Below, piece by piece: positions 11,296 through 62,034 of a stretch of DNA of 64,000 nucleotides. Source of the stretch: an uncultured bacterium (GTDB lineage Bacteria; Omnitrophota; Omnitrophia; Omnitrophales; Aquincolibacteriaceae); contig CAYLPP010000014.1 of assembly GCA_964385615.1 (NCBI GenBank), positions 3,836 to 67,835 on the forward strand, in the 5' to 3' direction. The translations under genes were made by a program, and so were the position numbers. How positions within the stretch are numbered: position 1 is the stretch's first letter; each line of letters starts with the position of its first letter. A model generated the notes under the pieces. That model was not told the DNA's origin, searched no databases, and worked only from the letters and a program-made list of their open reading frames with translations.

Positions 11296-11349
11296 AATCC
11301 TCGCACAAGAAACCTTCAAAAGGGCCGACAAATATCCGTTAAATTTGAT

Positions 11350-11769: not shown

Positions 11770-11848
11770 GATCTATTTGGGAATAAGGGCTTTCCCATGA
11801 ACAGGGATTGCTCTTCCTTTTTATCCTGAAATTAGCTATTATTTAGTC

Positions 11849-26300: not shown

Positions 26301-28924
26301 GATAACTCTTTTTCCCTGGAAGCCAAATCAAGTTCCTTGCGGTTTAATTCTCCCCTCGCGTCTTCAAGCTGAAGCTTAAGAGCTTCCGCTTGTTGTTTTT
26401 CCTGATTCAAGGATTCCCGCTTGCCCAGCCATTCCTTTTTCTCAAACGCAAATGCCTTCCTCCCCGCTTCAAACTCCGACTCCCGCTTATCCAAATTTAA
26501 TTGTCTATTCTTGAGCTGATCTTCCAAAACGGTCAAGGACTGCTGTTTCTGTTCCAACGCGGCCTTGTCGCCATCCAGCTGTTTTTGGAGCTCTTCGAAC
26601 TTCTGTTTTTCTCCTGAAAAACTCGATTGTTTTTCCATCCAGATTTTTTTATTGTCCGCAAGTTCTTTACGCTCAGCTTCCAAATCACTCGCTGTTTTTT
26701 CCAGCTCCTGCTTGCGCTGAACAAAATCCTGCCGCTCCGCTTCCAGATCGGCTTTTAACCGCTCAATCTCAGCCTTCTGATTTTCCATCTGCCGGCTGGT
26801 CAGGGTAACGTCTTTTTGCTTTTCAATAAAAGCTTCTTCCTTGCGGAGAGCGTTAGCCTGACGGTCCTCAAGATGCTGTTTAAAGGCGGCCAGCTCCTGC
26901 TTGTTTTTCTCCAGCTCTGCTTTTTCTTTCTCAAAACTCTGGAGCTCTGACTCAAACTGCCTGCGGTCTTCCTGAAACCGTGTGATTTCTTTCCGCTGGT
27001 CTTCTTTTTCAGCATTAAACTTTTCACGTTCCTGACGGATAGCCGCGGAAGCTTCCTTCTGCTTTTCGACATCCGCCTGTATCCGGGCACTTAATTTCTG
27101 CTGATTCTGCTCCTGAAGCATTTTTGCCTGTTCCAGCTCTGATTTTAAATTCTCAAGCTCGCCGGCCATCCGCTGTTTTTCAGCTTTAAGAGTTTCAAGC
27201 TCCGCCTGACGGTCCGCTTCTTTTTGCTGTGAAATCTCAAGCGTTTCCTGGAGTTTCCCCTGAAGGGAGGACTGACTGCGGGCAAGTTCGCTTTTAAGCG
27301 ACGCGACTTGCTTTTCCAGAACCGCTTTACCGGATTCCATATCCTGCAGACTCGCCTGAAGATCCGCGTCACGTTGTTGGGAGGCTTCAAGAGCTTCTGC
27401 CGCGCCGGCTCTCAGCTCTTCATTTTTCTTTTTAAGCTCCGCATTCAGCAAACGCAAATCTTCAAGCTGTTGAGCCGCCTTATCCTTGGAAACGGCCGCT
27501 TCTTTCAGCTGGCGGTTTTCATCCGTTAATTTTTGAACCTCGGAAATTAAATCCGTCTGCTGATTGCCGATCATTTCTTTCTCAGTTTTAAGACGGGTCA
27601 AACCCGCGTTCAGCTCGGCAAGCTGAGCCTTGAGGGTTTTAATTTCATCTTTTGCCGCGGCGTCCATATCCGCACTTTGTTTTTGCAGTTCATTTTTCTT
27701 TTGGCTTTCCCACGACTGTTTTTCCTGAGCGAAAATCTCACGGGCATTTAAAAGCGCCTGGCGGGATTTCTCTATCTCGCTCTTTTCGTCCAAAACCTTC
27801 CGTTCAAGCTGTTTTTGCCCGTTAACCGCTTCTTCCCTGACCGTTAGCTCTTTTTCCCTCTTATCAAGGCTTTCAAGGCGGGCTTCAAGCGCCTGCTCTT
27901 TTTGCGCCAATTCCGATTCCCGCGCGGTATTCTGGGCTTCCAGAGTTTTAAGGGTCTGTTCCTTTTCACCCTGCCCGGCCTGAACCGCCTGACGCGCTTG
28001 CTCCAGCTCCCCTGTTTTTTCTTCAAGCTGGCGGGTTTTTGCTTCAAGATCTTTTTCCCGCGTCGAGGCTTCCAACTTCAGCCTTTCCTTCTCTTTTTCA
28101 AGACCGGCAATCCGGCTTTCCAGATCTTTCACGGCCTCAGGCAACTTGGTATCCGGCTTAGGCGCGGCATCGATCTGCTTCTTTTGTGAAGCAAGACTGT
28201 CCAACAGGGAGGCGCGTTCTTTATCCCAATCCTGCCTTGCTTTTTCAAACTCGGCCTGTTTCTCCATAAGAAAATCTTTTCCGGACTCAACGGCACCCTT
28301 GGGAGGAGCTCCTCCGCTCTTCATACCCCGCTGAGCCTCAAGGTCCTGACTCAACTTTTGCATTTCAAAAGCTTTCTTCTGTTCCGTTAACTCTCCCTGC
28401 TGTTTTTCAAGATCTTTCAGCTTCTCCATCCACATCTTCTTAAACTGCTCACCGGAAACCATTTTCTGTTTCAAGTCCTGTTCCCAACGGGCCAGCGCCT
28501 GGCCTTTCGCCGTCAATTCCTTGTCTTTTTCAGAAAGTCTTTCAGAACGGCCCGCCTTCTGTCTCTTTTCAAGATCCTCAATCTTCTTCTTTTGGAAAAG
28601 AATCTCTTCGTCTTTCCGGTGAAGTTCTTCCAGAATCTGCGCCGTCGATTCAGGAACATCAGGCTTAAGTTCGCGCTTTTCAATATCCCAGGCTTTTTTA
28701 CGGATTTCAAAGTCCTGAATCTTCTGAAGAAGGCCTTGCTTGATTTTTTCGAGCTGTTCCTCTTTTTTATCGAGAAACGCCATCTGCTTGTCGCGTTCTT
28801 TTTGCCATTGCTGTTTCTGCTTTAAAAAATCAGAGGTGGATGAGGAATCCTGATCGGCCGCGTAAACGAAGGGCGCGGCGGAAGATGCGGCGTTTATGAG
28901 GGCTAAAAAGAAAAAAAGCCCCAT
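23399..28924 (-). CDS. Giant secreted coiled-coil protein (~1,840 aa; E/K/Q/A/L/R-rich)
   Basis: This is the long ORF 23399..29137. I moved its start to the ATG at 28924 (MGLFFFLALINAASSAAPFVYA|ADQD, a signal peptide), because the upstream 71 codons would overlap the tRNA-Arg region. Apart from the signal peptide the product is almost pure heptad-like charged repeat. Confidence 0.75.
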   Translation of the reverse strand: MGLFFFLALINAASSAAPFVYAADQDSSSTSDFLKQKQQWQKERDKQMAFLDKKEEQLEKIKQGLLQKIQDFEIRKKAWDIEKRELKPDVPESTAQILEELHRKDEEILFQKKKIEDLEKRQKAGRSERLSEKDKELTAKGQALARWEQDLKQKMVSGEQFKKMWMEKLKDLEKQQGELTEQKKAFEMQKLSQDLEAQRGMKSGGAPPKGAVESGKDFLMEKQAEFEKARQDWDKERASLLDSLASQKKQIDAAPKPDTKLPEAVKDLESRIAGLEKEKERLKLEASTREKDLEAKTRQLEEKTGELEQARQAVQAGQGEKEQTLKTLEAQNTARESELAQKEQALEARLESLDKREKELTVREEAVNGQKQLERKVLDEKSEIEKSRQALLNAREIFAQEKQSWESQKKNELQKQSADMDAAAKDEIKTLKAQLAELNAGLTRLKTEKEMIGNQQTDLISEVQKLTDENRQLKEAAVSKDKAAQQLEDLRLLNAELKKKNEELRAGAAEALEASQQRDADLQASLQDMESGKAVLEKQVASLKSELARSQSSLQGKLQETLEISQQKEADRQAELETLKAEKQRMAGELENLKSELEQAKMLQEQNQQKLSARIQADVEKQKEASAAIRQEREKFNAEKEDQRKEITRFQEDRRQFESELQSFEKEKAELEKNKQELAAFKQHLEDRQANALRKEEAFIEKQKDVTLTSRQMENQKAEIERLKADLEAERQDFVQRKQELEKTASDLEAERKELADNKKIWMEKQSSFSGEKQKFEELQKQLDGDKAALEQKQQSLTVLEDQLKNRQLNLDKRESEFEAGRKAFAFEKKEWLGKRESLNQEKQQAEALKLQLEDARGELNRKELDLASREKELSDRAAAFESEVKARSQEQTVLEASRKKIGEEETALQEKTQVFESLQREFEARRTDFEKQKSGLESERAALEAEKAGIERMRKQAEDETSAARSRIDRDLGEYQKKIEALKKREEESIKDQEILQSRQAQVEEKQARLEKLSSSVEAGKMKIKDEKTQLENLRDELVQEKTAFQTDRDRWAQSVEEMKKRQQAFEEEKTAFGRKISAYENDKLAWTKARDLQEADFAARNSSLQDKERDLEVRLGKLLPLKEKLAQERKALDQRQKDMEARESAVSAQTAELERGRDQLDAAQKKWELELSGRKEEFASQKQDLANLKLSLDQRTQGLADQDKELAASRAQLSDDKLHWNEEKRAWQNEKSGEEARLGALDAQLQERQKTVTDKEARLSGLQKELSQAKADLLLERKKLETEKTQFEKMRSEWEAKMTDSRNLIAADQASLAERIRSFEAEEAAFKVGTLKLSQDQTIWEEQKKAQALEMAGREQAVSELKTSLESRQEALNVRESALNQKARAVSDEKKQLGEERRVLDADKQAFDLKSSELKSLLDQDRKRFENEKLLAETRIKDQTQSLDLRSKDLEQREAVLSTGQKKLESETLMLKEAKSQLSSRQDQLLQEQAKFKNQQAALERDKSLYEKQLTEFNQLRTAWEAEKTELKNKLDSEKQLVSAAEKAVSERETKASRLENENAQVKKALEEKEQAFTAEKQAWVQERSAKESAMQQAQTFLTQNAQSLDARNLELDQRQTALDSKAGDLETARKKLGEQADEFEKRRAALETQNAVYLQNVETFNASRQAWEKDRLASEQSLEQNLKALELAKAKIEQEKNKSAEEKRNYDNAISHSREELERNFASLTGRENQLSALQTQIQGEWAALRKSEADLESAKRAAQDGLQKEQGRLTEWEARLSRQDYQLQEKQRVLDARELQVRRRESQWLPAQSPTEQMVMEEAQRSGIERAVPAPAPKLKN

Positions 28925-29110
28925 TGAAAAATGGAGCTTACTCTTTTTGTAGTCAGTGTTTGTGATAATTTTAAATCCTCTCCCCGAAGGATGCTTCATA
29001 CTAGTACAGGGATTATAGGAAGTCAACGCTGTATAGGAGGGCAAAAATGCCTGACCGTAGACGGTATTCCTTAAACCGTCACGGATCAGGTATTTGCATT
29101 TGGATGCAAA

Positions 29111-29183
29111 TGCCCCGGGCCGGAATTGAACCAGCAACCTTATCCTTAGGACGGATCTGCTCTATCCAATTGAGCTACCGGGG
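29111..29183 (-). tRNA. tRNA-Arg(CCU)
   Basis: A manual fold of the reverse complement gives acceptor GCCCCGG/CCGGGGC. The D-arm is GCUCAAUUGGAUAGAGC and the anticodon loop is GUCCUAA, giving anticodon CCU. The T-arm is GCUGG-UUCAAUU-CCGGC, the discriminator is A, and CCA is not encoded. Confidence 0.8.
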
Positions 29184-29255
29184 CGAAGAACGCTTTTTGC
29201 TCGATCCTTTACGAAGCACGCGGCCGATAAGAGGAGGACTGAGAAGTCCGACTAC

Positions 29256-36909: not shown

Positions 36910-36951
36910 AAGGACGGCATTCTAGCAAAAAGCCTTAGGTCCTTCAATTGA

Positions 36952-39900
36952 TTAGGCTGAAGCCCCTGTGAGTTCCTGGGCGCGGAGGTAACGGCCCAGC
37001 GTTTCAGAAAGCAGGCTTTGTGCCGTAGGCGTCACAAGCCCGGCGCGGGAAATGTACTCAATACCGACTTTACCCAAAAATTCCGCCATGCGCTGAGTGT
37101 ATTCCTTAACGTGAACCACATCCCCCAGATCACGCTTGAGCTGGACCGCGGCCAAAAGCTGAAGCTGGGTCAGTTGATTCATATATTTAAAGGAAGAGGC
37201 CGGATCCATTTTTTCCAGAACCGCCGGATCGATCAAAAAAGAAGGCAGATGATAAAGGTCTTTGATATTTTCCGGCGCGGATGTCACGGAAACGGAAATA
37301 GCGTCTTTGGAACGGCGTCCGGCAGCCAGAACTTCATCCTGCTGAATAATTTCAAAAACTTTGGAGGCCGGACGGCCCTTGACCCATCGCGCGAGTTCTT
37401 CGGCTCCGCGCCCCGCGAAGTAAACCGCCTTCCCCGCCGGGCTTCCACTCTGCTGGAAACCCTCTTCAAGAAGGTCGAGGTACTGGCTGCGCGCGTCTTC
37501 GGGAATATTCAAAAGCAGTTTCGCCGGAAGCACCGCCGAAGCACCGGCCTTGAAAAGCTTCGAATATCCGGAGGCAAGCTCCGAACGGTCTTCCCCTTGA
37601 ATGAAAATCTCCGTTTTACTTTCCGGGAACATGACACCGTACAACTCGCGCATCACGTCAAGCCCCAGAATTTTCGCGGTCGTCTTTGCGGCAACTTCCA
37701 AAGCCGCGGCTCTCGACTCAGACCGGGCGGACGGCACTTCACCGGAAGATTGCTCGCCCATAATCACCGGTAAAATATCTCCGGCAAAACGCTCAAATTC
37801 CGCCGGTTCAGTCCACTTATGCACCTGCCGGATCTCGCGAATCGGCAGCTCAAGCCGCTGCGGATCAAAACTCTTTATGGTTTGCTTCACGTAAGCATAA
37901 AAATGGTTTCTAACCCAGAAATTCTCATCGCTGTGTTGTTCAATAACCGTCCGCACCGGCCCTAACTGAAAAACCGGGTCTACCGGGAATCTCGCGTCTT
38001 CCCCTCCATAAGCGCGGGCACGCAATCCCTCCACCCTGCCGGCAGGCCCCGCGTATAAATACCCGGGAATCCACAGGACAATCACTTCGTCATCCGCGCT
38101 GAATTTCAACCGTCCGCCGGAAACTTTCGTGAACGCATAAGCAAGAGAACTCTTGCCGGACCTTGATACTCCCGAAAGAATGACCGCGTCTCCCTTCTGA
38201 TTGAATAGAATGTCCGAATGGACAATTTCCATCTTTAGCTGCGCCACGATCTCCGGATATTCTTTACGAATCTTATCCATCCAGCCGGTGACAGCTTCTT
38301 TTAACGCGCCGTTCTCGATACTTCCGGGATTTCCGTCATATAAACCGTTCAGGATTGAATGCACGTATCCCCGATACTGTGTAAATTCAGGACGGCTGAG
38401 AATCTCATAAATCTCTCCGGCTTCCCTAAAAAAAGCATCCGCCCTGCCGGCGGAAATCACGTCAGCCTTCGCGCGCAATTCAGCGCGCGCAGGCGGGTAT
38501 ATTTTCTCAAAAGCGGAAAGCATTTCACCGGCATCTTTATAAAGCCGGTCATCCGGGTTTTCCTTCAGCGCGCCCGCGATAATTTCTGAAAGTTTCTTCA
38601 ATTTATCTTTCGAAATAGCCGCTTCGATCTGCACCTGGTTAGGAAAACTTTCATAAAAGCGGGGAATATCCGCAACGCGGACATCCTCAATCAGCTGATG
38701 CCCTGTCGCTAACTGATAAAGAACAAGCCCCAGGACAAAAACATCCGCGCGGGGATTCACAACCCACACCCCTCGGGTCATTTCAGGCGCTAAATAATCC
38801 AACGTCCCGCGAATAACCTCGTCCGCGGCCATCCCAGGATATAAACTTAGTATCCGGCCTTGTACCTGCGAGAGATTAAAATCAATCAGCTTAAGAGAGC
38901 CGTTTCCGGTAACCATAAAATTGGCCGGCTTCAGATCCCGGTGAACAATTCCCCGAAGATGCGCTTCATGAACCGCCTTCAGAATATTTCTCACGATTTC
39001 AATCAATTTTTCCTCAGTAACCGGATTCAAGTAAAGCCAGTCGAGAAGCGTTTTCCCATCTATGTATTCCATTCCTATAAAAGGAACGGGCACCGTGTCA
39101 TCCGCTTGCGAGGGATACACCTTGACCGCGAACGGATTCTCGCGCCCATTAAAAGGAGCCGCGTAGAGTTCCATCGCTTTACGTTCAAGTTCCGCCATTT
39201 CACGGTAATACCCGCCACTATTTGTATAAATTTTCAGCGCCGCGGTTTTACTTGGATCTGATTTTTCCGTAACCTTATGCACTGTGCCGATACCACCGTC
39301 ACCGCCGATCACACCCCCGGCCTCAAAATCCCGCCCGCCAAACCGGACGTCCGTCCTCAGCTCAGACCTTTTTTGCGTTTCGATTTCAGATAAATGAACG
39401 CGCGCGTATTTTTCAAAATCACCGGGATCCACCATGGACTCATTAACCATCGTGACAGTCCACGGCTCAAGAGCGGTTCCTTCATACCCCGGGAAAATAC
39501 CGGCCATGTACTGTTTCAAATGGCTTTCTCCGGGATTCCTAATAGGCATTTTAAAAGGACCTCCGGAAAGCCGAAACTCCGCTCTCACCAGCCCCACGCC
39601 TAAATAAGATTGATAAGGTATATTATTTTCAGAGTCGTAAGCCCTGGCCCTGAGATTCTCAAAAGAATAAGCGGATCCCGCCAGCAAATGGCCTGGAATG
39701 CGGATCAGATTAATATCATCCGCGGACGCGATTTTAACCCGCCCGTTGGAGACACGGCTGAAAGCGTATCCAAGCGACCCTTTCCCCGATTCACTTTCTC
39801 CGAATAAAAGAACGGCTTCGTTGTTTTCGTTAAAAAGAAGATCGCCGTACATCCGGAAGCTCCGCATGAACGGAACGATATCAGGAAATCTTCCGGAAAT

Positions 39901-42900
39901 TTCCGCGTACCATTTTTGAATTTCTTTTTGAAGTTCCGGATTTTTTTTAAACGCGTAATTATTCTGAGGCAGCCCGTAAATAAAAGACGGCGCCATGTGC
40001 AGAAAGCCGCGGAATTCGGGCCGGTTCAAAATTTCATAAATCCCTTCCAGCGCCTTGGAAAATTCCCTGGCCCTTTCTTCAGTCACCGGCGGAGCTTCAA
40101 TTTTTTTCTCGGCGGAACCGGCGCGCGATTCGGAGCGCGGAGAAACCGTCGTCCTTTCGAAGGGAATGCGCACTGTAATCCGGGTACCCGGCACAAAAGT
40201 CATCAAGGAGGCCGCCTGCTCAAACTCGCCGTCCGCGTTGCGCCGCCAAATCCCTTCTCCCGTAACGATCTCGACAAAATTTCCCACAGTGGAAAGTTTG
40301 CGAAACCCATTGCCCCCATACCATTTCCTCTGGCTTCGTTGCCTCACAACCTCCGGATCTCCGAGACCGTAGCCATTGTCCCAAGCCGTGATTTCCACAA
40401 CAGGCCCGCCTTCCTGCTCAATAACTTTAAAACCCACGGCTCCGCCAAAAGCGTATTCGAGCATATTAAAAATCAATTCATGAATGACTCGGGCCCCGAT
40501 CAGCCATTCCTGGCCAAGCACCTGCTGTTCAAGCCGGTACGCGTCAGAAATAACTGAGAAATAAGGCCCCGTTAAAGCCCGGGAATAAATCGGCAGAGCC
40601 TGATAACCTTCAGCGGTCAAAGCCGCGGCTTTCGGCTCGGCCATCAGCCGCCAACGCTCCGTTTCTTCCGAATCGATCGAACGGAGTTCCGATCTTTTTT
40701 TGACCCATCGTTCTTCATAATATTTTTGAAGCGCTGAGTCCCACTCCCGGACCGTGGAAAACCTTTGCTTGCCGAGCTCGTTTAAATTGGAAAAACGTTC
40801 GTTTACCACTCTAAAAATATCCATTGCGTCCAGTAAACCTGTCGGAGAACTCATGGAGGAAACAGCCCGCGCCAGCAAGGACGCTGAGATAAATCCGGAA
40901 ATCGCTTCACGGTCAGACGTGTACTCATCGCTAAAATCAATAAGGACCGGCTGGTTTTCTTTTGTAATAATGACGTTTCGAGGCTGTAAATCGCCATGCT
41001 CCAGCCCTTCAGCTTCCATAAGCTCCACCGCTTTACCAATCCGCAAAGTCCATTCAACAATCTGCTTTTCAAATTCCTCATCGCTCAAACTTTTCGCGGT
41101 GTAAGCCCACCGTTCCAGATTTTCCCCTTCCGCGTAAAGCCGTTCATACTTCCCGCCCTTTTTCTTCCGGATTCTGGGAAAAACGGGGTTGTCCTGATGC
41201 TTCAAAAGAAAATTGACGATAGGTTTATCCCAATTAATCGGAACCCAGTTCTCTTCCGCGGTGCGTATTTCAGAACGGGCCATGGCGCGCCAGGCCTCAA
41301 ATAATTCCGCGGGATTCGCGTAACGTTCGGCAGGATTAGCGCGGACCGCTTTGGCAATCACAGGCGCGAATTTTTCCCATTCCTTTTCCGCATTCTCTTC
41401 CCGCAAGCGCTGAATTATTTCTGAAGGCGTAAAATTCCTGGAAAGCTTTTCAGCCCGAAGCACTTTTGGGCTGAGTGTTTTAAAAAGCCGGTTCCCGGCA
41501 GCGAGCCAGAAAAGAAGGAGTCCCAGGCTGTAAACTTCCGTTTGCGGTTCCAAAGTACCCGCCGGAGCTTCAGGCGCCGCGAACTGGTCCGTGAAACCCT
41601 TATTCTTACGATTTTGTCCGGCGGGCAGTGCCAGACCAAAATCAATAACCGCGGGCTTGTTTTGAGAAGTCATAATAATATTTTGAGGTTTGATGTCGCC
41701 ATGAAGCACTCCGGCGCGGTAAATTGCCGAATGAGCCGCGAGAATATCTTCAGCGGCTTTTTTTAGATCCACAAAACTTTTTCCTTCTCTCCAGCTGTTA
41801 AGCGGCTGACCTTCCGCAAAATCCATAACCAGAGCCGTATCGCCGTTAATTTCATCATCTCTTTGCGTGACCCGGCCAACACCCAGAACATCAGGCACGA
41901 ATTCCGGGGAAGCTTCATGGGCTTGCTTCATCAGATTAAATTCTTCTTCTTGCGCCTCGAAAGAAATTCCGGAATAGGTGTCATAAACTTTCAAGGCTGT
42001 CTCCCGCCCGCTCACAGTGTCGCGGCCGCGGTAAACCCCGGACAACCCGCCGCCAAACGACTCGCCTCCCGCTTTCGATTCATAAACTCTGCCGGCCAAC
42101 ATGACTTGAACGCGGGACTCAGACCGGGAAATAGCTGCCCGGAACGAGCGGAACATTTCTTCAGCGTCAGCATAACGGGCTGAAGGATCAGGATTGATAG
42201 CCCGGGCAATGACTTTGGCAGCGGGGCCCCAGACATCCAACGCTTCCGTGCTTAAGTCTGAGAGCGCCCTGCGGATCTCCGCCGTGCCGGGAGACTGATT
42301 TTTTTCAATTTTGAGCTTTTCCAAATAGAGAAGCGAGTTAAAATCGCCGTCGCTCGGACTCGAAAAAGGCGGCTTGTGCAAAGCCATCCAGTAAAGAATA
42401 ACGCCAAGGCTGTACACATCAATCCGCGGAGTCAGGACGCCAGAACCTTGAAGCGCTTCCGGCGCGGCAAAAAGGTAGGTCCCCTTAACCCGTGAAAGCG
42501 GTTTCCCGATTCTGCTTCCGAAACGAGCCACGCCAAAATCCAGAATTTTAACTCCGGTATCCGTAATATAAATATTCGCGGGCTTCAGGTCCTGATGCAC
42601 AATTTCAGGATGCAGAGAGGCCGCGGCTTCAAGAACGGAAAGGGCCTGCTCCAACACTTGGGGAGCATCCTTACCCTTCACCCAAGCCGCGAGATCCTGC
42701 CCTTCCAAAAATTCCATGACGATAGACGGCATAGGATCTTCAGGACCGTCAATATGCCCCCACCCAATCACCGCGGGCACATGCTCTTTATCCTTCCGGG
42801 CATATTCAATCAAAGCTCTGTATTCGTTTTTGCTGGCAGCTTCACGGTTCACATATCTGTAAATCTTAACTGCTACCGGATTAGAAGATCCGCCGTCATC

Positions 42901-45900
42901 CTTGTGGGCTTTAAAAACCCAGGCATAACCGCCGGCGCCGGCCAAACTATCCACGGAATACTGCGTCCCGTTGACTGTTAATTTTTTCCCGACAAAAAGC
43001 GACGGGTCATTCAAGGCTTTCGGCCTCAGCTCTTCAGACGCCGCCTGTTCGAGTACCGTTAAAAATTCTTCCGCGTTCCGGTAACGCTTTTCCGGAGCAA
43101 CATCCAGCGCCTTACGCAGGGCCGGAATAAAAGAATGCCAAGTTTCCGGCAAACGCGACGCAAGTTCCTCTTCCGTGACCTGGCGGTTATGTTCCGCTAT
43201 GTAATCCACCGGATTTCCCGCCTGAAAAAGCTTCTGCCCGGAAGCGAGTTCAAAAAGAACTTCGGCCAGCATATAAACATCCGTGGACGGTTCATAAGGC
43301 CCGCTGCCCCTTGTGAAAATTTCAGGAGCCATGTAGGCGGGTGTTCCGGTAATTTTCCAGGAAGCTTTAACCGGCATTGTCTTTGTGCCGATCTGAGAGG
43401 TCATGAAATCCAGTATTTTCACCTTCCCGGCGGGAGTCACCAAAAAATTCCAGGGTTTAATATCCAGATGCACCACAGGCTCATTGAGCATATGCAAAGA
43501 AGCAACCGCCCTGGCGGTTTTCAAAGCAACGCGGATTTTTTCCGCGTCCGGCTTCCCTTCAGCCCACGCGGCCAGAGTTTCCCCCTGAATATATTCCATT
43601 GCGATCGCGGAATATCCGTTACCGCTGTCAAGACCAGCACCATAAAATTCAGGCACATACAAATTACTAGCTGACGCGGCTTGCATAACTTTGACTTCGT
43701 GGGAGACCAGAGAGCGGAGAAATTCAGGATCGTTTAAAAGATGCGACGGGATGATTTTGACGGCAATATCCGGTTGACCGGAAGCTGAGGCCAGATAGAC
43801 CTCTCCTCCCGCACCGCTGTCAAGAAACCGGGTCAATGTATAAACTTTACTACCGAATCTTTTAAGTTCGATTTTTTTTCCTAAATAGGCAGGCGCAGGG
43901 GTTGTCGCCCGGACCTCAGAGCGCACAGGCGGAGAAAAAACATCCGGGGGAAGTTCCGCGCTGAGAACCTCCAGCAATTCTCCGGCATCCTGAAAACGCT
44001 TTTTCGGATCCGGATCAAGCGCCTTACGCAAAATTTTACCGACCTTCTCTTTAAGCTCTTTTTCCAGAGGAAGCCGGTCTTCAAGATCCGCTTGAGGCAG
44101 CGGTTTTTTACGCTCCTGCCCCAGCTTGGCGTATTGCCCTTCCCGTTCTTGTTCCGGCGTCAGAGCAAACAGCCTTTGCCCGGTCAAAACCTCAAAAATA
44201 CTCGCGCCAAGAAGGTAAACGTCCGTTGCCGGAGTGTAAGGCCCGGTTCCATTAAAAAACATTTCCGGCGCCATGTAGGCGGGCGTTCCGCGGACATCCG
44301 TGTTCCGCTCCGAAGGCGCGGGCTTCCTGCCGATCTGACTGTAAGTAAAATCCAGAATCTTAACTTTCCCCGCGGCCGTAACAAACAGATTGGAGGGTTT
44401 TAAATCCAGATGAACCACTTTGTTTCGATGCATCATCGAAGCCGCGCGGACAACATTCACTGACATCGAAAGTTTTTGCGGTAAGGAAGCGTTCTCTTCC
44501 GCCCACTTTTTCAGACTTTCGCCCTCCAAAAACTCCATGGCGATTAATGAAAAAGAGTCCTGGGAAAAGCCAATTTTGGATCCATAAAACATGGGAACAT
44601 ATTCATTGTCTTTTCCCGCGGCCCGGAGCGCCTGAACTTCATGCTTAATCTGACTCTCTCTCAAAGCGCGCCGGCGGCGGCCTTGATCGCTGAAAACCTT
44701 AACGGCTATCGAAGGAAATCGAGCGGGGTCCACGGAAACGGGAACCGCGCGGTAAACACGGCCGTTCCCTTCTTTGTCCAGCATGGACTCCAAACGGTAC
44801 TTCGCTGAGCGAGTATGAACAATAACACCCAAAAAGCCGGAGTGACGCTTCCAGAGCTGCACTCTGCTTTTCTGAAGTGTTCCCGCGGGCCATTCGATAA
44901 AACCTTGTTTAGGATGCCGGTATTGAAAACCGGTTGGCGTCCGCTGGCGCAGAATCGCGCGGGAAACATCAATCCGGGTTCCCCCTCCGCTGGCTTCTAT
45001 AAGCGTTTGGGCCAACTGCATCAACGCTTTGCCGATTCCCTCGACTAACTCTAAGTCGCTGATATGAACCACCATCCCGGGGCTGCCGGATTCTAATCCC
45101 GGAATTTCCGAAACCCACGGGAAAGGACCTGCCCACTTTTCTCCCTCCGGGTCAATTTGCGCGGAGTAGGTATTGTCCTTATTCCTTTTCATGAGGATAT
45201 CGATAAACCCGGCCGGATTTCGCCCTCCATCGGCAGTCCGCCGGAAAGCCGTTACACGAAACGCGATTTCGGGGGGTTTCTGTCCGGCAGGAATATCCGC
45301 AGGAACCGGTCTTTGCTTCCAGCTGAATCCATAAAAAATCCGGTAGGGCTCTTCAACTTTCCGAATTTGTCCGCCGGCCGAAACCGCGGTTGAAGTGTCC
45401 GCTTCTTTTTCCTTCGCGGCAACCACCATGGGGCGAGTCATTCTTTCCTGGCGGGTGCTCCTCAAATCCGTGTTGAACCTGTTGGCTTTTAAAATCTGCC
45501 ACCAGACATCTTTAATTTCACTTTCAATTTCAATAATTTTCGCGGCTTCCGCGGATTTCGCGGGATAAGCGGCGGCAATCACCTGCAGTTTCAGGCAAAT
45601 ATCCGGAAGAGCTCCATCCATCCAGAATAAAATCCCGCCCCATCCCGCTTTGATGCCGGCAGGCGTGCGGTAAATCCCCTGAGTAGTCCGCTGGGAGTTC
45701 CGGAAAGCAAAACCCGCGTAGGTTGTATCCAGAAAACGGCCGAATTCCTTTTCAAATTCCTGAATGTTTCCCCGGCGAAGATGAAGATAAAGAATTTGCT
45801 GCTGAACCTGCATGGGGAAAAACCCCACTCCGTCAACCTTTTGAAGCGCTTTCAAAAGCAAAAGCACGCGGTCATAAATTCTGTCAGCCTGAAATTTATC

Positions 45901-48774
45901 CCCCGAACTTTGATAAAAAAAAGCGATCTCGCTCAGCTCATTGATGTAGCCGGAAATCTCCGCGCGGATATCGGGCATAAACACAGGCTTTTTCTCCGCC
46001 TCCGCCAGCCGAAGATTAAAAGCTTCACGGCTTTCATAACCGGTAATTCCCAGCCCTTGATAAATAGCCCACTCCTGATCCGTAGCTTGCGCCATCTCTC
46101 TGAGTGTTTCAAGTTCCGGATATTTCAGAAGCCTCATTTTTTCATCCGCCTGCTTGGAAGCGAGATTAATCAGTCCCGGATTTTCGCCGGAGTCGCCGTA
46201 AAGCATATCGTCGAGCTCCCCGTGCGGAATTTCGGAAATATCCTTCCCCTGATACTCCGCTTTTTGAGGCCCGAGATCCTGCCAGTTTTTCTCGTCGTAG
46301 ATTCGGATAATCCGGGAAGTTTCATACATCAGCTCGTCCCTGCGGGCTTCTACCGACGCGCGTTTTGAGGCTTTATTTGTTTTCTCAGCATTCCGGACAA
46401 ACGCGATTCTCTTGAGAATACTGGAAGCATCCGCAAGCGAAGAGGCCGCCCTCGGTGCCGGTAAACCGGCACCGCCCGCGTAAAGATCATCTCCCGCCAT
46501 CCGGAGATGCGTTCTCCAGTGGTAACTTGTTTTTCTTTTTTGGAGATCCTCGTAAATTTCCCCAAAAATCTCGGGTAAAAGCCCGCGATTCTCATTTTCA
46601 TACGTCATCGATTCAACTTCACTGTGGTAAGCCAGCATTAAATCCGCCGCACGCATCAGATACAAGCCAACCAGCGCCTGATCAATTTTAGAATCCGGAT
46701 TAAGCATTTTTAGAAATTCCATTGAAAAAAGGATGGCGTTGCGCCGGTAGGAAACCTGGAGGGTTTTCTCAAAAAGATCGTCCGGCCTGTCGTCCTCATA
46801 AAACAGAACCGTCGGGAGCTGCATGGCCAGAATAAAAACATTTTTCCTGAGCCACTCAAGCGTGGATTTATGCGATTCTTGAACGGCCGTTTCAAGATAA
46901 GCCAGGGCGTGTTCAATCATTCTTTCCGGCTGAGCTTTCCTCCCGCCTTCTTCAGGCAAAACGCCTGGGTCGGATTCCAACGGATCATTCTCATAGTACG
47001 CTTCGGAATTTAACGCGGGCGGAGGGCTGTAAAGGCGGTAGCGATTTTTAACATTGATCGAAAGAGGAAGCATTTTCCCCCCGTAATCAGGCAAAAGATG
47101 TTCCGCGGATCCGTCTTTATGGGCCGAGCGCAATTCTGCCCGGGCGGGTGAAGCCCCTTTGGAAATTCCATAATCGGTAATTTGTCTTCGAATTTCCGCG
47201 CGCGCGGTTTGAAGCGCTGACGGCCAGGCTTCATCGTCCATCATCCACTGCGGAACGCGGACGGCGGACGCCCCAAAATCGAGTTTGCGGTTTTTTCCGT
47301 TCATCGCGTCGCCGTATTTGCGGGAATCCTCGATCTGACTCAAATGGGGCATGATCACGGCGTAAGAAATTTTCCGCTCCCGGAATTGCCTGCAGAGACC
47401 TTCAGTGTGAAAACCGCCCGCGATCACGGCCGCGGGTTTCTTATCCCCGGCCAGAAGGCTTAAAATTTCGCGCCCCATGGTTTCATCACGCTGATTTGCC
47501 AGATCGTAAAACCTGGATGCTTTTCCGTAAACTTCGCGGAGATCCGCCGGCAGAACGGTTTCAAGGCCGGTTCTCGAATCTTGATTCCAAAGTCGGTATT
47601 CCGCAGATGTCACTGAAAGCGAAAGGATTTTCCGAAGTTTCAGCCACTGTCTGAATTTCTCGAGAAGCGCCTGAGCCCGGCTTTCCGAGGCCAGCTTTTG
47701 AAGAACCTGCTCCCGTAATTTTTCCATTTCTTCCATCAGGACACGGGCTTCAATCTCTCCGCTCAAAATCTGAAATCCTTCAAAAACAAAAAAATCAGGA
47801 TACTCTTCAAAGCGGAATCCTTTAGAAGAGGCCTGGCTGTAAAAGCGTTCCCAGGATTCCCGGAGCCCGGATGTTTCCGGGATTCCGCCGTTTTCTTTTT
47901 GAAGCGGAAGTATTTTCTCCATCTTGTTCTTTGCGGCCCACGCCGAAAGTTTTTCTTTCTGCGTTTCCGCCTTCTTGGCGTTTATCAGGGGCTGACGCCG
48001 TTTCAGCTCAAAAAAACGGACCAGCATCGGCCACTCTAACTGCGCGCGCGCATTCCCTAAATCCAACTGAAGAATTTTCTGGGCCTGCCCTTCAAGTTCC
48101 GATAGATAAACCGGAAGCGGAATTTTTTCGTCTTCGAAACCCGACCATATCCGAAAAAATTCAAAAAGCTCTTTTGAAAAAACCCGGGAAGCTTCCTTAC
48201 TGATTTCAGAAAACTTCTTTTCAAGGCCCGCGCTTATCCGGTCTTTTTGAGAGGATATTTCCTGATAGAGCTGAAAGTTTTCAAGATAAAGCGGAAGGTC
48301 TTCAGTACCGTAAGCCGTCACAAACTCGCGGTTCCGAAGCGTGAACCTCTCGGCACCGCCGATTTCAGCTTCACGCATCAGCGTACCGGCAATTTCAAGA
48401 TTCAGCGCGCCGTTATCAAAAAAGGTCAGGCGTGAGGGATCAAGCCGTCCGGCACCTCCCTCAATAAAAAGAGAGTTTAATCCGCGGTTGGCTTTTAAAA
48501 ATTCCAACAAGCCGTCGGTACTTTTCTGCGCTTCATACTGCCCATGCGCGTCAGGAATGATAAAAAGAGAAGGATTTTCCCCGAAAGTTTCCATCAAGGT
48601 TCCAAGTTCAGGCGGGATGGCTGGAGAGTTTTCAGAGGTTTTGACCTCTCCCAGAGGACGGTCGAAAAGGATTTCCGGAGCAGTCCAAGCGGGTTGACTG
48701 CCGACATAAAAAAGGAGCGTAAAAAAAGCAACGCCCCGCCGAAAGCTAAAATAACGTAAGTGGTTGATTTTCAT
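36952..48774 (-). CDS. Giant 3,940-aa multi-kinase protein. It has a signal peptide or signal anchor and a ~1,300-aa unknown N-region. It contains 6 Hanks-type Ser/Thr kinase domains, a GHKL ATPase domain, 2 HprK/P-like P-loop modules and a 340-aa unknown C-region
   Basis: It is one uninterrupted ORF. The kinase catalytic loops and DFG-type motifs read from the translation are HLDLKPSN/DFT, HLDIKPWN/DFM, HQDLKPAN/DFG, HGDIKPQN/DFG, HGDLQPRN/DFS and HRDLKPAN/DFN. The VAIK-type lysines are IAVKVF, IAVKII, VAVKIY, TALKVY and AALKIY. APE motifs are present. The GHKL motifs are NMLEYAFGG…ITAWDNGYGLG. The HprK-like Walker A and downstream motifs are GESESGKGSLGYAF…ASADD and GVSRSGKSSLAYAF…SADDE. 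I verified codon positions for HRD (38941-38943) and DNG (40369-40377) on the DNA. Confidence 0.85.
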   Translation of the reverse strand: MKINHLRYFSFRRGVAFFTLLFYVGSQPAWTAPEILFDRPLGEVKTSENSPAIPPELGTLMETFGENPSLFIIPDAHGQYEAQKSTDGLLEFLKANRGLNSLFIEGGAGRLDPSRLTFFDNGALNLEIAGTLMREAEIGGAERFTLRNREFVTAYGTEDLPLYLENFQLYQEISSQKDRISAGLEKKFSEISKEASRVFSKELFEFFRIWSGFEDEKIPLPVYLSELEGQAQKILQLDLGNARAQLEWPMLVRFFELKRRQPLINAKKAETQKEKLSAWAAKNKMEKILPLQKENGGIPETSGLRESWERFYSQASSKGFRFEEYPDFFVFEGFQILSGEIEARVLMEEMEKLREQVLQKLASESRAQALLEKFRQWLKLRKILSLSVTSAEYRLWNQDSRTGLETVLPADLREVYGKASRFYDLANQRDETMGREILSLLAGDKKPAAVIAGGFHTEGLCRQFRERKISYAVIMPHLSQIEDSRKYGDAMNGKNRKLDFGASAVRVPQWMMDDEAWPSALQTARAEIRRQITDYGISKGASPARAELRSAHKDGSAEHLLPDYGGKMLPLSINVKNRYRLYSPPPALNSEAYYENDPLESDPGVLPEEGGRKAQPERMIEHALAYLETAVQESHKSTLEWLRKNVFILAMQLPTVLFYEDDRPDDLFEKTLQVSYRRNAILFSMEFLKMLNPDSKIDQALVGLYLMRAADLMLAYHSEVESMTYENENRGLLPEIFGEIYEDLQKRKTSYHWRTHLRMAGDDLYAGGAGLPAPRAASSLADASSILKRIAFVRNAEKTNKASKRASVEARRDELMYETSRIIRIYDEKNWQDLGPQKAEYQGKDISEIPHGELDDMLYGDSGENPGLINLASKQADEKMRLLKYPELETLREMAQATDQEWAIYQGLGITGYESREAFNLRLAEAEKKPVFMPDIRAEISGYINELSEIAFFYQSSGDKFQADRIYDRVLLLLKALQKVDGVGFFPMQVQQQILYLHLRRGNIQEFEKEFGRFLDTTYAGFAFRNSQRTTQGIYRTPAGIKAGWGGILFWMDGALPDICLKLQVIAAAYPAKSAEAAKIIEIESEIKDVWWQILKANRFNTDLRSTRQERMTRPMVVAAKEKEADTSTAVSAGGQIRKVEEPYRIFYGFSWKQRPVPADIPAGQKPPEIAFRVTAFRRTADGGRNPAGFIDILMKRNKDNTYSAQIDPEGEKWAGPFPWVSEIPGLESGSPGMVVHISDLELVEGIGKALMQLAQTLIEASGGGTRIDVSRAILRQRTPTGFQYRHPKQGFIEWPAGTLQKSRVQLWKRHSGFLGVIVHTRSAKYRLESMLDKEGNGRVYRAVPVSVDPARFPSIAVKVFSDQGRRRRALRESQIKHEVQALRAAGKDNEYVPMFYGSKIGFSQDSFSLIAMEFLEGESLKKWAEENASLPQKLSMSVNVVRAASMMHRNKVVHLDLKPSNLFVTAAGKVKILDFTYSQIGRKPAPSERNTDVRGTPAYMAPEMFFNGTGPYTPATDVYLLGASIFEVLTGQRLFALTPEQEREGQYAKLGQERKKPLPQADLEDRLPLEKELKEKVGKILRKALDPDPKKRFQDAGELLEVLSAELPPDVFSPPVRSEVRATTPAPAYLGKKIELKRFGSKVYTLTRFLDSGAGGEVYLASASGQPDIAVKIIPSHLLNDPEFLRSLVSHEVKVMQAASASNLYVPEFYGAGLDSGNGYSAIAMEYIQGETLAAWAEGKPDAEKIRVALKTARAVASLHMLNEPVVHLDIKPWNFLVTPAGKVKILDFMTSQIGTKTMPVKASWKITGTPAYMAPEIFTRGSGPYEPSTDVYMLAEVLFELASGQKLFQAGNPVDYIAEHNRQVTEEELASRLPETWHSFIPALRKALDVAPEKRYRNAEEFLTVLEQAASEELRPKALNDPSLFVGKKLTVNGTQYSVDSLAGAGGYAWVFKAHKDDGGSSNPVAVKIYRYVNREAASKNEYRALIEYARKDKEHVPAVIGWGHIDGPEDPMPSIVMEFLEGQDLAAWVKGKDAPQVLEQALSVLEAAASLHPEIVHQDLKPANIYITDTGVKILDFGVARFGSRIGKPLSRVKGTYLFAAPEALQGSGVLTPRIDVYSLGVILYWMALHKPPFSSPSDGDFNSLLYLEKLKIEKNQSPGTAEIRRALSDLSTEALDVWGPAAKVIARAINPDPSARYADAEEMFRSFRAAISRSESRVQVMLAGRVYESKAGGESFGGGLSGVYRGRDTVSGRETALKVYDTYSGISFEAQEEEFNLMKQAHEASPEFVPDVLGVGRVTQRDDEINGDTALVMDFAEGQPLNSWREGKSFVDLKKAAEDILAAHSAIYRAGVLHGDIKPQNIIMTSQNKPAVIDFGLALPAGQNRKNKGFTDQFAAPEAPAGTLEPQTEVYSLGLLLFWLAAGNRLFKTLSPKVLRAEKLSRNFTPSEIIQRLREENAEKEWEKFAPVIAKAVRANPAERYANPAELFEAWRAMARSEIRTAEENWVPINWDKPIVNFLLKHQDNPVFPRIRKKKGGKYERLYAEGENLERWAYTAKSLSDEEFEKQIVEWTLRIGKAVELMEAEGLEHGDLQPRNVIITKENQPVLIDFSDEYTSDREAISGFISASLLARAVSSMSSPTGLLDAMDIFRVVNERFSNLNELGKQRFSTVREWDSALQKYYEERWVKKRSELRSIDSEETERWRLMAEPKAAALTAEGYQALPIYSRALTGPYFSVISDAYRLEQQVLGQEWLIGARVIHELIFNMLEYAFGGAVGFKVIEQEGGPVVEITAWDNGYGLGDPEVVRQRSQRKWYGGNGFRKLSTVGNFVEIVTGEGIWRRNADGEFEQAASLMTFVPGTRITVRIPFERTTVSPRSESRAGSAEKKIEAPPVTEERAREFSKALEGIYEILNRPEFRGFLHMAPSFIYGLPQNNYAFKKNPELQKEIQKWYAEISGRFPDIVPFMRSFRMYGDLLFNENNEAVLLFGESESGKGSLGYAFSRVSNGRVKIASADDINLIRIPGHLLAGSAYSFENLRARAYDSENNIPYQSYLGVGLVRAEFRLSGGPFKMPIRNPGESHLKQYMAGIFPGYEGTALEPWTVTMVNESMVDPGDFEKYARVHLSEIETQKRSELRTDVRFGGRDFEAGGVIGGDGGIGTVHKVTEKSDPSKTAALKIYTNSGGYYREMAELERKAMELYAAPFNGRENPFAVKVYPSQADDTVPVPFIGMEYIDGKTLLDWLYLNPVTEEKLIEIVRNILKAVHEAHLRGIVHRDLKPANFMVTGNGSLKLIDFNLSQVQGRILSLYPGMAADEVIRGTLDYLAPEMTRGVWVVNPRADVFVLGLVLYQLATGHQLIEDVRVADIPRFYESFPNQVQIEAAISKDKLKKLSEIIAGALKENPDDRLYKDAGEMLSAFEKIYPPARAELRAKADVISAGRADAFFREAGEIYEILSRPEFTQYRGYVHSILNGLYDGNPGSIENGALKEAVTGWMDKIRKEYPEIVAQLKMEIVHSDILFNQKGDAVILSGVSRSGKSSLAYAFTKVSGGRLKFSADDEVIVLWIPGYLYAGPAGRVEGLRARAYGGEDARFPVDPVFQLGPVRTVIEQHSDENFWVRNHFYAYVKQTIKSFDPQRLELPIREIRQVHKWTEPAEFERFAGDILPVIMGEQSSGEVPSARSESRAAALEVAAKTTAKILGLDVMRELYGVMFPESKTEIFIQGEDRSELASGYSKLFKAGASAVLPAKLLLNIPEDARSQYLDLLEEGFQQSGSPAGKAVYFAGRGAEELARWVKGRPASKVFEIIQQDEVLAAGRRSKDAISVSVTSAPENIKDLYHLPSFLIDPAVLEKMDPASSFKYMNQLTQLQLLAAVQLKRDLGDVVHVKEYTQRMAEFLGKVGIEYISRAGLVTPTAQSLLSETLGRYLRAQELTGASA

Positions 48775-61639: not shown

Positions 61640-61970
61640 TCTTCCTCCAGAGACAGGATGGAAGCCGGGGCTAAAGACAGAACACGCGGGCTTTTTCTCT
61701 GCTCGGAGACTTGGACAGGCAGTTCTTCTGGCTAGGTGACCTTAATGCTTTTCCTACTTGCAGGCCTTCCCAAAACCTTTCGGTCTCAGTGGCTTTTACC
61801 TGATCCTATGATCAGGTACGTCAAACAGCGGCCTTGAAGGTCGTCTGCTTGACGTCTGCTTTCGTTGTCACCAACAGCGGCGGCACCGCGGGGTCTATGA
61901 AGTTACCTCTCTTCATAGCCCACTTCCCTATTAAGCCCGGCCCTGAGGCACAGGCACCTGCGGAAAATTG
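61640..61970 (-). promoter_or_regulatory. Cobalamin (B12) riboswitch with SD-sequestering expression platform, leader of btuB-cob operon
   Basis: The minus-strand RNA contains …GGUGCCUGUGCC…UUAAUAGGGAAGUGGG…GCCGCUG… and the B12-box GCCACUG (plus strand CAGTGGC at 61787-61793). Near the start codon, CUUCCAUCC can pair with the GGAGGAAG Shine-Dalgarno sequence 18 nt upstream of the btuB AUG. Confidence 0.75.
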
Positions 61971-62034
61971 AAAGAACAATATTGAAGTGGTGTGATTATA
62001 AAAAGAAAGGAGGGATTGTCAAACAGGAATTTCT

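Follow-up and report, generated by a model that had tools for sequence, protein, structure and literature searches.

How did a bacterial gene come to encode six protein kinase-like domains in a row, are these domains still kinases, and where would such a protein act? These questions are raised by a locus in an uncultured member of Omnitrophota, for which we analysed a stretch of 64,000 nucleotides (the window; assembly GCA_964385615.1, contig CAYLPP010000014.1). A first-pass annotation of the letters had noted an array of kinase domains, K1-K6, at 38515-44772. This span is part of a gene that continues for another 1.6 kb on the downstream side and another 4 kb on the upstream side: according to the list of open reading frames (ORFs) and the translation, all six domains belong to a single ORF (window 36952..48774, minus strand) of 3,940 amino acids (aa), and a deposited NCBI protein, P0124, is identical to it. 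The region is the kinase-rich middle of one chromosomal Omnitrophota gene, which encodes a modular, 'beads-on-a-string' protein. Module borders were set by self-comparison of the protein and by comparison with its relatives. From the N-terminus, the order is a signal-peptide-like start, a TIKI-fold hydrolase-like domain, an unknown region, K1-K4, K5, a GHKL-ATPase-like module (X), a P-loop module (P1), the RD kinase K6, a second P-loop module (P2) and a conserved C-terminal domain; five types of non-kinase module (TIKI-type, unknown region, X, P-loop and C-terminal) thus stand beside the kinases.

Five of the six domains have the residues that a kinase needs. Pfam Pkinase (PF00069) matched the protein in six stretches (491.1 bits against a cut-off of 31.7, E 9.8e-148). 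A regular-expression scan located the catalytic loops HLDLKPSN (aa 1455, K1), HLDIKPWN (1769, K2), HQDLKPAN (2060, K3), HGDIKPQN (2358, K4), HGDLQPRN (2593, K5) and HRDLKPAN (3278, K6), the DFx motifs DFT, DFM, DFG, DFG, DFS and DFN in the same order, and APE in K1-K4 and K6. In an alignment with Mycobacterium tuberculosis PknB, which served only as an alignment guide, the beta3 Lys was found in IAVK (K1 and K2), VAVK (K3), TALK (K4) and AALK (K6); the same five domains had the alphaC Glu, HxD Asp, loop Lys and Asn, DFx Asp, APE Glu, alphaF Asp (Glu in K4) and subdomain-XI Arg. Judged by these residues, K1-K4 and K6 are catalytically complete, the Gly-rich loops of K1 and K2 being two residues shorter than usual. 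The motifs quoted in the first-pass annotation were all placed at kinase catalytic positions by the PknB alignment, and its nucleotide spans, which translate to aa 1335-1600, 1640-1905, 1935-2205, 2235-2500, 2505-2660 and 3145-3420, each fall inside the matching domain. It was also right that K6 is the only RD kinase (Arg before the catalytic Asp; HRD in K6, and HLD, HLD, HQD, HGD and HGD in K1-K5) and that K1-K4 are non-RD yet retain Asp and Lys. The domains are 27-41% identical to K1, with local stretches of up to about 58%. Their closest relatives are bacterial kinases, and they group with bacterial Hanks kinases. A search with the C-terminal 1,240 aa returned matches dominated by ordinary kinases that aligned to K6 and was uninformative on X, the P modules and the C-terminal domain.

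K5 is a different kind of module. In the alignment with PknB, neither a Gly-rich loop nor a VAIK Lys nor an APE was found in it. An AlphaFold2 model made from four orthologous modules (predicted local distance difference test score, pLDDT, 82) contains alphaC, beta4-beta5, the hinge, alphaD, alphaE, the catalytic loop and two short strands with DFS, after which the chain passes straight into the C-lobe helices; the model has neither strands beta1-beta3 nor an activation/P+1 segment. In fold searches about 148 of about 270 kinase residues aligned, and K5 has neither the complete residue set nor the bilobal fold of a Hanks-type kinase. Among the kinase-like modules it has the highest identity between the window protein and P0126, a positional orthologue (69%, compared with 46% for K1 and 34% for K6), which argues that K5 is not a decaying copy. 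Its H-G-D, loop Asn and DF Asp are invariant in four proteins, and the position of the catalytic-loop Lys varies among them (Q, Q, N and, in P0125, K). The earlier proposal that K5 had lost this Lys and is likely a pseudokinase therefore stands in that K5 is not a competent kinase, but the Lys itself is a variable feature among orthologues. The proposed gradation of the array from kinase to pseudokinase did not hold up: there is no decay gradient, K5 being the best conserved and the five others being catalytically complete. Of the structural comparison that had been suggested between K5 and K6, the K5 model was made, with the missing parts described above. K5 is a conserved, kinase-derived and probably non-catalytic module, a natural example of a kinase core conserved without the ATP-binding strands and the activation segment.

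The history of the array could be read from its relatives. A HMMER search with K1-K4 identified four close relatives, in which hidden Markov models detected eight (P0126, 4,507 aa), five (P0125, 6,172 aa), five (P0127, 4,164 aa) and two (P0128, 3,379 aa) kinase-like domains, compared with six in the window protein. Each of them has a signal-peptide-like start, the TIKI-like domain and the C-terminal domain; K5 is missing from P0128 only, and some have X and P modules. P0125, P0126 and P0128 are positional orthologues, which come from three other assemblies and occupy the chromosomal slot of the window gene, and the number and order of modules vary widely among such orthologues. A neighbour-joining tree was built from 84 kinase domains (22 full-length domains of the five family members and 62 others; 268 columns), with K1-K4 and K6 representing the window protein. 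The 22 family domains formed a clade of their own against the 62 others (bootstrap 80-83), within which domains paired across species: K2 with the first kinase domain of P0125 (96), K3 with the second of P0125 (74), and K1 with the first of P0126 (64). Because the family-only clade is combined with cross-species orthologous pairs, the tree points to an old internal duplication: K1-K4 and K6 derive from one ancestral domain that was duplicated within this protein lineage before the sampled species split, and the subsequent history of the array is one of module loss, gain and reordering. The choice between internal duplication and fusion, for which a domain tree had been suggested at the outset, was thus decided in favour of duplication. 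The array has its origin neither in a fusion of unrelated kinases nor in a recent tandem amplification, and no nucleotide repeats span the domains. The family is known from NCBI, ENA and Logan assemblies only; the N-terminal 1,320 aa had no match when scanned against GTDB species genomes, and scans of JGI metagenomes with alignments of the C-terminal domain and of K5 yielded no relatives.

It had also been claimed that tandem kinase arrays are not known from bacteria at this multiplicity. This does not hold, since one bacterial protein of NCBI nr, QGJ71674.1 from Planctomycetales, has six Pkinase stretches, and the orthologues of the window protein carry two, five and eight domains. A full-text literature search found no description of bacterial multi-kinase arrays, of the window-protein family or of the junction motif described below. 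Several multi-kinase proteins in our representative protein library were dropped as bacterial precedents, being eukaryotic (oomycete, bird). QGJ71674.1 (P0139, Planctomycetales bacterium 10988) and P0140 are unrelated to the family; each has about 2,590 aa and six Pfam Pkinase stretches. In P0139 only two stretches have a canonical H-x-D...N loop, and the protein has no leader peptide and a normal Cys content. P0139 and P0140 represent a separate, apparently undescribed bacterial kinase/pseudokinase array.

The feature of this gene that we think most interesting is the peptide that separates its modules. A pentapeptide, [RK][SA]E[LVMIS]R, was present at every module boundary, in a degenerate form (SEELR) between K2 and K3. 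Besides this degenerate copy, the window protein has 10 strict matches, compared with 0.15 expected from shuffling; nine of them are at boundaries, the exception being RAEIR at aa 525. The four close relatives have 8-12 matches each. The motif did not occur in the 11,905 aa of the other window ORFs, nor in five of seven more distant giants and N-terminal-domain homologues tested, and P0136 has one; an equivalent repeated motif was looked for in the more distant TIKI-led giants and was not found. A logo of 49 sites from five proteins reads (P/A)(P)(A)-R-S-E-(L/V/M)-R-(S/A), with Ser at the second motif position in 45 sites and Ala in 4. The codons used vary from site to site, and Tandem Repeats Finder detected no nucleotide repeat spanning domains, only a 41-bp array near the 5' end of the gene. 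These two observations rule out that the motif reflects recombination repeats at the DNA level, and they imply that the constraint acts on the peptide.

Some of the non-kinase modules appear to be enzymatic. The N-terminal domain has the alpha/beta TIKI fold. Its D75-x-H77, E105 and H456 are invariant in 11 sequences, the first acid being Asp instead of Glu, and the H-to-E spacing of 28 is that of RRSP and Bcr135. With its 2His/2acid (2His/2Glu-type) catalytic motif intact, it is apparently an active TIKI-type hydrolase. It belongs to no Pfam family: the only match, Cofac_haem_bdg, covered 45 residues at 16-17 bits against a cut-off of 27.7. The region at aa 550-1320 had no match in Pfam, NCBIfam or PDB sequence searches and, among the proteins examined, is conserved only in the closest orthologue, P0126 (44-49% identity). 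X matched Pfam HATPase_c below the cut-off (E 4.2e-5, 24.4 bits against 26.4; profile positions 8-110 of 111), and its N, G1 and G2 boxes were recognised by eye; it is conserved in P0126 and P0125, and two orthologous modules gave no HATPase_c match. P1 and P2, which flank K6, are paralogous (33-36% identical overall, about 40% over the core), and modules orthologous to P1 occur in P0128, P0126 and P0123. Neither P module matched Pfam. Weak matches to TIGR04352 HprK_rel_A (E 0.075, in two of five members) and to HprK (hhalign probability of 41% over 33 columns around the P-loop, with an HprK reference validated against PDB) suggest a link to HPr-kinase-like proteins. The C-terminal domain is 49-65% identical in all four relatives and had no match in Pfam, NCBIfam or PDB. 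All five family members end in the tail ...(Q/H/T)EL(T/V/L)(G/A/S)(A/T)(S/A)A-COOH, which could be a sorting or recognition signal. Positions of all modules and junctions are given in Table 1.

Table 1. Modules and junction peptides of the multi-kinase gene, listed from the N-terminus of the protein; positions are those of the window
Feature	Position	Strand	Residues (aa)	Remarks
Whole gene, modular multi-kinase protein	36952..48774	-		one intact 3,940-aa ORF; identical to P0124
Signal-peptide-like N-terminus	48679..48774	-	1-32	MKINHLRYFSFRRGVAFFTLLFYVGSQPAWTA/PE (putative cleavage before PE); read from the sequence
TIKI/EreA/ChaN/TraB-fold domain	47140..48627	-	~50-545	invariant D75, H77, E105, H456 (also E142, E158, R429)
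RAEIR	47188..47202	-	525-529	inside the end of the N-terminal domain, not a boundary
RAELR	47128..47142	-	545-549	end of the N-terminal domain
Region of unknown function	44815..47127	-	550-1320	
K1, Hanks-type non-RD kinase	43900..44814	-		HLDLKPSN/DFT/IAVK/APE, shortened Gly loop; orthologous to the first kinase domain of P0126
RSEVR	43909..43923	-	1618-1622	K1/K2 junction
K2, Hanks-type non-RD kinase	43000..43899	-		HLDIKPWN/DFM/IAVK/APE; pairs with the first kinase domain of P0125 (bootstrap 96)
SEELR	43024..43038	-	1913-1917	degenerate, K2/K3 junction
K3, Hanks-type non-RD kinase	42130..42999	-		HQDLKPAN/DFG/VAVK/APE; pairs with the second kinase domain of P0125 (bootstrap 74)
RSESR	42112..42126	-	2217-2221	K3/K4 junction
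K4, Hanks-type non-RD kinase	41245..42129	-		HGDIKPQN/DFG/TALK/APE; Pfam, motif scan, PknB alignment
RSEIR	41263..41277	-	2500-2504	K4/K5 junction
K5, conserved 190-aa kinase-derived module	40675..41244	-	2511-2700	HGDLQPRN/DFS; without beta1-beta3 and activation segment
RSELR	40681..40695	-	2694-2698	K5/X junction
X, GHKL (HATPase_c)-like module	40114..40674	-	2701-2887	N-box ELIFNMLEYA, G1 WDNGYG, G2 GGNGF
RSESR	40123..40137	-	2880-2884	X/P1 junction
P1, P-loop module	39355..40113	-		Walker A GESESGKGS; internal repeat with P2
RSELR	39355..39369	-	3136-3140	P1/K6 junction
K6, Hanks-type RD kinase	38455..39354	-		HRDLKPAN/DFN/AALK/LAPE; nearest domain neighbours include ordinary bacterial kinases
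RAELR	38473..38487	-	3430-3434	K6/P2 junction
P2, second P-loop module	37735..38454	-		GVSRSGKSS; internal repeat with P1
RSESR	37711..37725	-	3684-3688	P2/C-terminal-domain junction
Conserved C-terminal domain, family-defining	36955..37734	-	3681-3940	260 aa; ends ...ELTGASA-COOH

A TIKI-like leader was also found on more distant proteins of 2,700-7,200 aa with four to six kinase-like domains (P0132/P0273, P0143, P0172, P0136 and P0169, the last being MBI4970779.1 from Omnitrophica). P0132/P0273 and P0143 lie on one 2,174,956-bp JGI contig, indicating two such paralogues in one genome. Other enzymes also follow this leader domain, HD-GYP in P0001 and a phosphoglucomutase-like region in P0002 (Omnitrophica), so that it appears to serve the long proteins of this group as a general N-terminal 'head'.

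Two properties of the window protein bear on where it acts. Its N-terminus has a basic n-region and a hydrophobic core of 12 residues, and aa 1-32 are the only hydrophobic segment of the protein, no other 19-residue stretch reaching a Kyte-Doolittle value of 1.5; the N-termini of the relatives are similar (...FFTL..Y....(V/A)WA/AP, with a basic n-region followed by about 12 hydrophobic residues). Cys is nearly absent, with 2 among 3,940 residues (0.05%) compared with 0.72% in the other window ORFs (binomial P 1.6e-10). The family members have 1-3 Cys per 3,379-6,172 residues (0.03-0.07%), compared with 0.77% in the leaderless six-kinase Planctomycetales protein. From the combination of a signal-peptide-like start and Cys depletion, both marks of exported proteins, we infer export.

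We tentatively propose that the product of the gene is a modular multi-kinase protein that is exported and may act as a processed polyprotein effector, a reading to which, taken as a whole, we give slightly less than an even chance. The protein would leave the cell by the Sec pathway, as suggested by the signal-peptide-like N-terminus and the two Cys in 3,940 residues, features found in all relatives. Since at least eight of its modules (K1-K4, K6, P1, P2 and the GHKL-like X) would depend on ATP, it would act in or on another cell, in an ATP-containing compartment. It would then serve a host-dependent or predatory bacterium as a multi-kinase effector. As a rule, RD kinases require phosphorylation of the activation loop; the non-RD kinases may be active without such priming, with K6 as the regulated member and K5 as a non-catalytic docking or regulatory module. 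The junction peptide would serve for recognition, in the simplest case by a protease, possibly the TIKI-type domain of the protein itself, that releases the modules. Such a protein would not be out of place in this phylum, for which long proteins that combine signal peptides, 'cytoplasmic-type' enzymes and repeated Pfam domains have been described in host-dependent or predatory lineages (bioRxiv 10.64898/2026.06.07.730766; 10.1101/2023.11.21.568195; PMC10066038). A fuller version of this proposal is that of a self-processing multi-effector polyprotein, exported by Sec, cut at PxRSE(L/V/M)R (perhaps by its own TIKI-type endopeptidase) and deploying kinases from three unrelated superfamilies (Hanks-type, GHKL and P-loop) into or onto the cells that the Omnitrophota bacterium lives on. 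Functionally, such a polyprotein would have converged with MARTX toxins while consisting of different parts, with a module number that evolves fast at a fixed locus. We consider this version speculative and, as a whole, unlikely.

Several points weigh against export and action on another cell. The cleavage site of the window protein (AWTA/PE) is less canonical than those of its relatives, and no secretion-system, adhesin or host-targeting gene is adjacent, the neighbours being competence and housekeeping genes. There is no ATP outside cells. The argument for kinase activity is one from residues, and the Gly-rich loops of K1 and K2 are shortened; cleavage at the junctions is hypothesised from the motif, and delivery into another cell is what we infer from the need for ATP. 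The TIKI-like domain also heads distant multi-kinase giants that do not have the junction motif, so the two do not always go together. With 3,940 aa the protein is also far smaller than the described Omnitrophota 'giants'. Finally, the N-terminal domain has homologues that are joined to enzymes of the usual cytoplasmic kind (HD-GYP in P0001, a phosphoglucomutase-like region in P0002), fusions that fit a membrane-tethered cytoplasmic topology equally well. The main rival is a membrane-tethered signalling hub in the cytoplasm, whose N-terminal segment stays uncleaved as an anchor or plays no part in export, and whose modules form a fused phosphorylation cascade or scaffold. In such a hub, the non-RD kinases would be constitutive and would activate K6, K5 would be an allosteric partner as in JAK or plant kinase-pseudokinase pairs, and the junctions would present their Ser for autophosphorylation or as a pseudosubstrate. 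It would account for the ATP requirement of every enzymatic module and for the housekeeping neighbourhood without secretion genes, and the predominance of Ser with a minority of Ala at the junctions is the pattern expected of phospho-acceptor/pseudosubstrate pairs; many Omnitrophota long proteins have, moreover, been reported to be anchored in the inner membrane with cytoplasmic domains. However, a basic n-region followed by an h-region of only 12 residues resembles a cleavable signal peptide and not an anchor, the Cys depletion extends to all family members and sets them apart from the cytoplasmic Planctomycetales protein and the other window ORFs, and no sensor domain, second transmembrane segment or nearby gene for a partner phosphatase or FHA protein was found. 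We regard the hub as unlikely on balance, though a serious contender.

The remaining alternatives carry less weight with us. If the protein is exported and its kinase folds are non-catalytic, forming a surface scaffold for structure, adhesion or binding, the lack of extracellular ATP is no difficulty. K5 demonstrates that the family tolerates non-catalytic kinase folds, and Omnitrophota long proteins have been proposed as adhesins or coats (PMC10066038). What makes such a scaffold improbable is that every catalytic residue is kept in K1-K4, K6 and most orthologous domains despite identities of 34-48%, which is hard to explain without catalysis, and that neither the Walker A nor the GHKL motifs have been lost. 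The similar layout of tandem kinase plus degenerate kinase, together with the fast change of module content between orthologues, could instead suggest a bacterial analogue of the tandem-kinase immune proteins of plants or of anti-phage systems based on kinases, in which kinase/pseudokinase decoys sense effectors of an invader. The protein scored 458.4 with NCBIfam MAD6 (methylation-associated defence kinase, NF047741), close to the cut-off of 460, but this score is a sum over six kinase stretches and still falls below the cut-off, and identity with MAD6 was rejected on this ground and for the housekeeping neighbourhood. No defence genes, methyltransferase or NLR-like partner occur near this glyQS / PPDK / rpoD / comEC locus, the signal-peptide-like start and Cys depletion are unlike a cytoplasmic sensor, and the kinase domains group with bacterial Hanks kinases; we find a decoy sensor very improbable. 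An assembly artefact (a chimera or collapsed repeat) or a decaying pseudogene is hardly credible. The sequence does come from a metagenome-assembled genome, and the exact protein was absent from the contig index searched, but the reading frame is intact over 11.8 kb, an identical protein has been deposited from an NCBI contig, and positional orthologues exist in three independent assemblies. Moreover, the low identity of the domains to K1, the lack of domain-spanning nucleotide repeats and the conserved catalytic residues are not what such an origin would leave.

If the reading as an exported multi-kinase protein is correct, this is a bacterial family that strings up to eight Ser/Thr-kinase-type domains and further ATP-dependent modules behind an export signal, which raises the questions of where an exported kinase array finds ATP and what gets phosphorylated. 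It would also provide a tractable candidate effector of host-dependent Omnitrophota, of 4 kaa (thousand amino acids) compared with 40-150 kaa. The domains could be expressed individually, with the VAIK Lys, H77/E105/H456 and the junction peptide as mutational targets, and the junction motif offers a testable handle on the suggestion in the literature that Omnitrophota long proteins are polyproteins. Should the cytoplasmic hub be correct, the protein would be an unusual case of a fused kinase cascade in a bacterium.

The gene lies between a comEC/comEA-like side and glyQ/glyS, with PPDK and rpoD also in the neighbourhood. The order ComEC, helix-turn-helix-cupin protein (opposite strand), ComEA-like protein, multi-kinase protein, GlyQ and GlyS is kept in two of the orthologous loci (L082 and L085), in which PPDK and rpoD come next, and the order in a third (L084) matches as far as that locus reaches. 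GlyQ of the window is 90.5-91.8% identical to proteins labelled Candidatus Omnitrophota, and proteins with a related N-terminal domain carry the label Omnitrophica. When scanned against GTDB species genomes, GlyQ had only matches of about 70%, which came from many phyla and were uninformative on placement. GlyQ and PPDK are 90-94% identical between the orthologous genomes, compared with 30-69% for the modules of the multi-kinase protein. The stop codon of the multi-kinase gene is separated from glyQ by 42 nt, and in this gap a sigma-70-like promoter match with a TG extension (TTGAAG-17-TAGAAT, 36919-36947, minus strand) and no terminator-like site were found, and glyQS may therefore be both read through from the upstream gene and separately promoted. 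A cobalamin riboswitch (61701-61976, minus strand; Rfam, 39.2 bits) is directly upstream of a TonB-dependent receptor (59736-61625, minus strand), after which come cobalamin salvage/biosynthesis genes at 52-58.6 kb; L082, L084 and L085 have this block upstream of the multi-kinase gene too.

Two further parts of the window were noted. A second large ORF (23399-29137, minus strand; 1,912 aa) matches no Pfam family, contains only 2 Cys and shows a strongly negative AT skew, and a counterpart of 1,885 aa is located downstream of rpoD in L082; it may encode another exported orphan protein. The start listed for it overlaps tRNA-Arg (29111-29184), so translation probably begins at a site further downstream. 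The first ~14 kb of the window (1-13613) have a guanine-plus-cytosine (GC) content of 0.43-0.45, compared with about 0.50-0.52 elsewhere. The cargo of this low-GC stretch includes RND efflux genes (CzcA-like, 5575-8655; outer-membrane factor, 9556-10830) and a two-component system (640-2722), and its end is marked by a large serine recombinase (11849-13567, plus strand; Resolvase, Recombinase and Zn_ribbon_recom domains) that abuts tRNA-Gln (13540-13613). This stretch looks like an island integrated at a tRNA gene.

How the protein relates to known systems can be seen from its parts. Compared with other Hanks-type kinases, such as M. tuberculosis PknB (PF00069), it has six copies of the domain per polypeptide, four of which are non-RD; unlike PknB-type kinases, it has no PASTA, TPR, FHA or transmembrane sensor parts, and its N-terminus is signal-peptide-like. 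A score above the cut-off for the PknB/Stk1 PASTA kinase (NF033483; 518.5 against 450) was rejected as evidence of such an identity, being a sum over five kinase stretches that involves the kinase part of the model only. The best stretch covers model positions 17-275 of 563, Pfam detected no PASTA domain, and there is no internal transmembrane segment. Secreted effector kinases, such as Legionella LegK1-4/7, Yersinia YopO/YpkA and Shigella OspG/NleH, are also Hanks-/eukaryotic-type kinases, which are exported to phosphorylate proteins of another cell; they have a single kinase domain, are delivered by type III or type IV secretion systems and act in known hosts. NCBIfam LegK1 matched the window protein partially and YopO was among the fold matches, but five or six domains and a Sec-type leader distinguish it from these effectors.

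The first-pass annotation had pointed to the tandem-kinase immune proteins of plants. The window protein resembles plant tandem kinase proteins (WTK1/Yr15, Rpg1; PMC6170490) in combining tandem kinases with a degenerate kinase and in an array that arose partly by duplication. The analogy is superficial, however. The protein is bacterial and its kinases are of unrelated origin; it has six domains compared with two or three, and no NLR partner or immune context nearby, the gene being set among housekeeping genes. Its degenerate domain is a stump without an N-lobe and not a full-length pseudokinase. The signal-peptide-like start, the near-zero Cys content in place of cysteine-normal cytoplasmic character, and the five further module types are additional differences. 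No sign of derivation from plant RLK/Pelle-type kinases was found, the chromosomal context and the nearest kinases being bacterial. Another system that invites comparison is that of MARTX toxins, secreted proteins of 3,500-5,300 aa that carry variable strings of effector modules released by inter-module cleavage (PMC6315884, PMC6254334). The window protein is likewise a string of enzymatic modules, variable in number and order, in which processing is hypothesised only, and the MARTX effector RRSP shares the TIKI fold with its N-terminal domain. Unlike MARTX, its cargo consists of kinases and ATPases behind a Sec-type N-terminus; Pfam detected no glycine-rich RTX repeats and no Peptidase_C80 cysteine protease domain (the protein has 2 Cys), and neither type I secretion or rtx neighbours nor a C-terminal type I secretion context was observed.

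A further parallel is found within the phylum itself, for which a host-dependent lifestyle has been inferred (10.64898/2026.06.07.730766; 10.1101/2023.11.21.568195; PMC10066038). With the long proteins of Omnitrophota, the window protein shares the phylum, a signal-peptide-like start combined with 'cytoplasmic-type' enzymes, a repeated Pfam domain and the same paradox of topology. It differs in length (3.9 kaa compared with 10 kaa or more, up to 147 kaa), in its lack of transmembrane helices and in a housekeeping locus that is not beside secretion or pilus genes. With 3,940 aa, and 3,379-6,172 aa in the relatives, the family remains below the length criteria of 10,000 aa or more used in catalogue statistics and of 30,000 aa or more for 'giant genes'. 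We found no description of Pkinase arrays, the junction motif or a TIKI leader in 10.64898/2026.06.07.730766, 10.1101/2023.11.21.568195 or PMC10066038. The domains are members of the Hanks-type kinase family, and the protein can be counted neither among plant tandem kinase proteins nor among MARTX toxins, PASTA kinases or MAD6 defence kinases. It belongs to a small undescribed family that builds on bacterial Hanks kinases and on the long multi-enzyme proteins of Omnitrophota.

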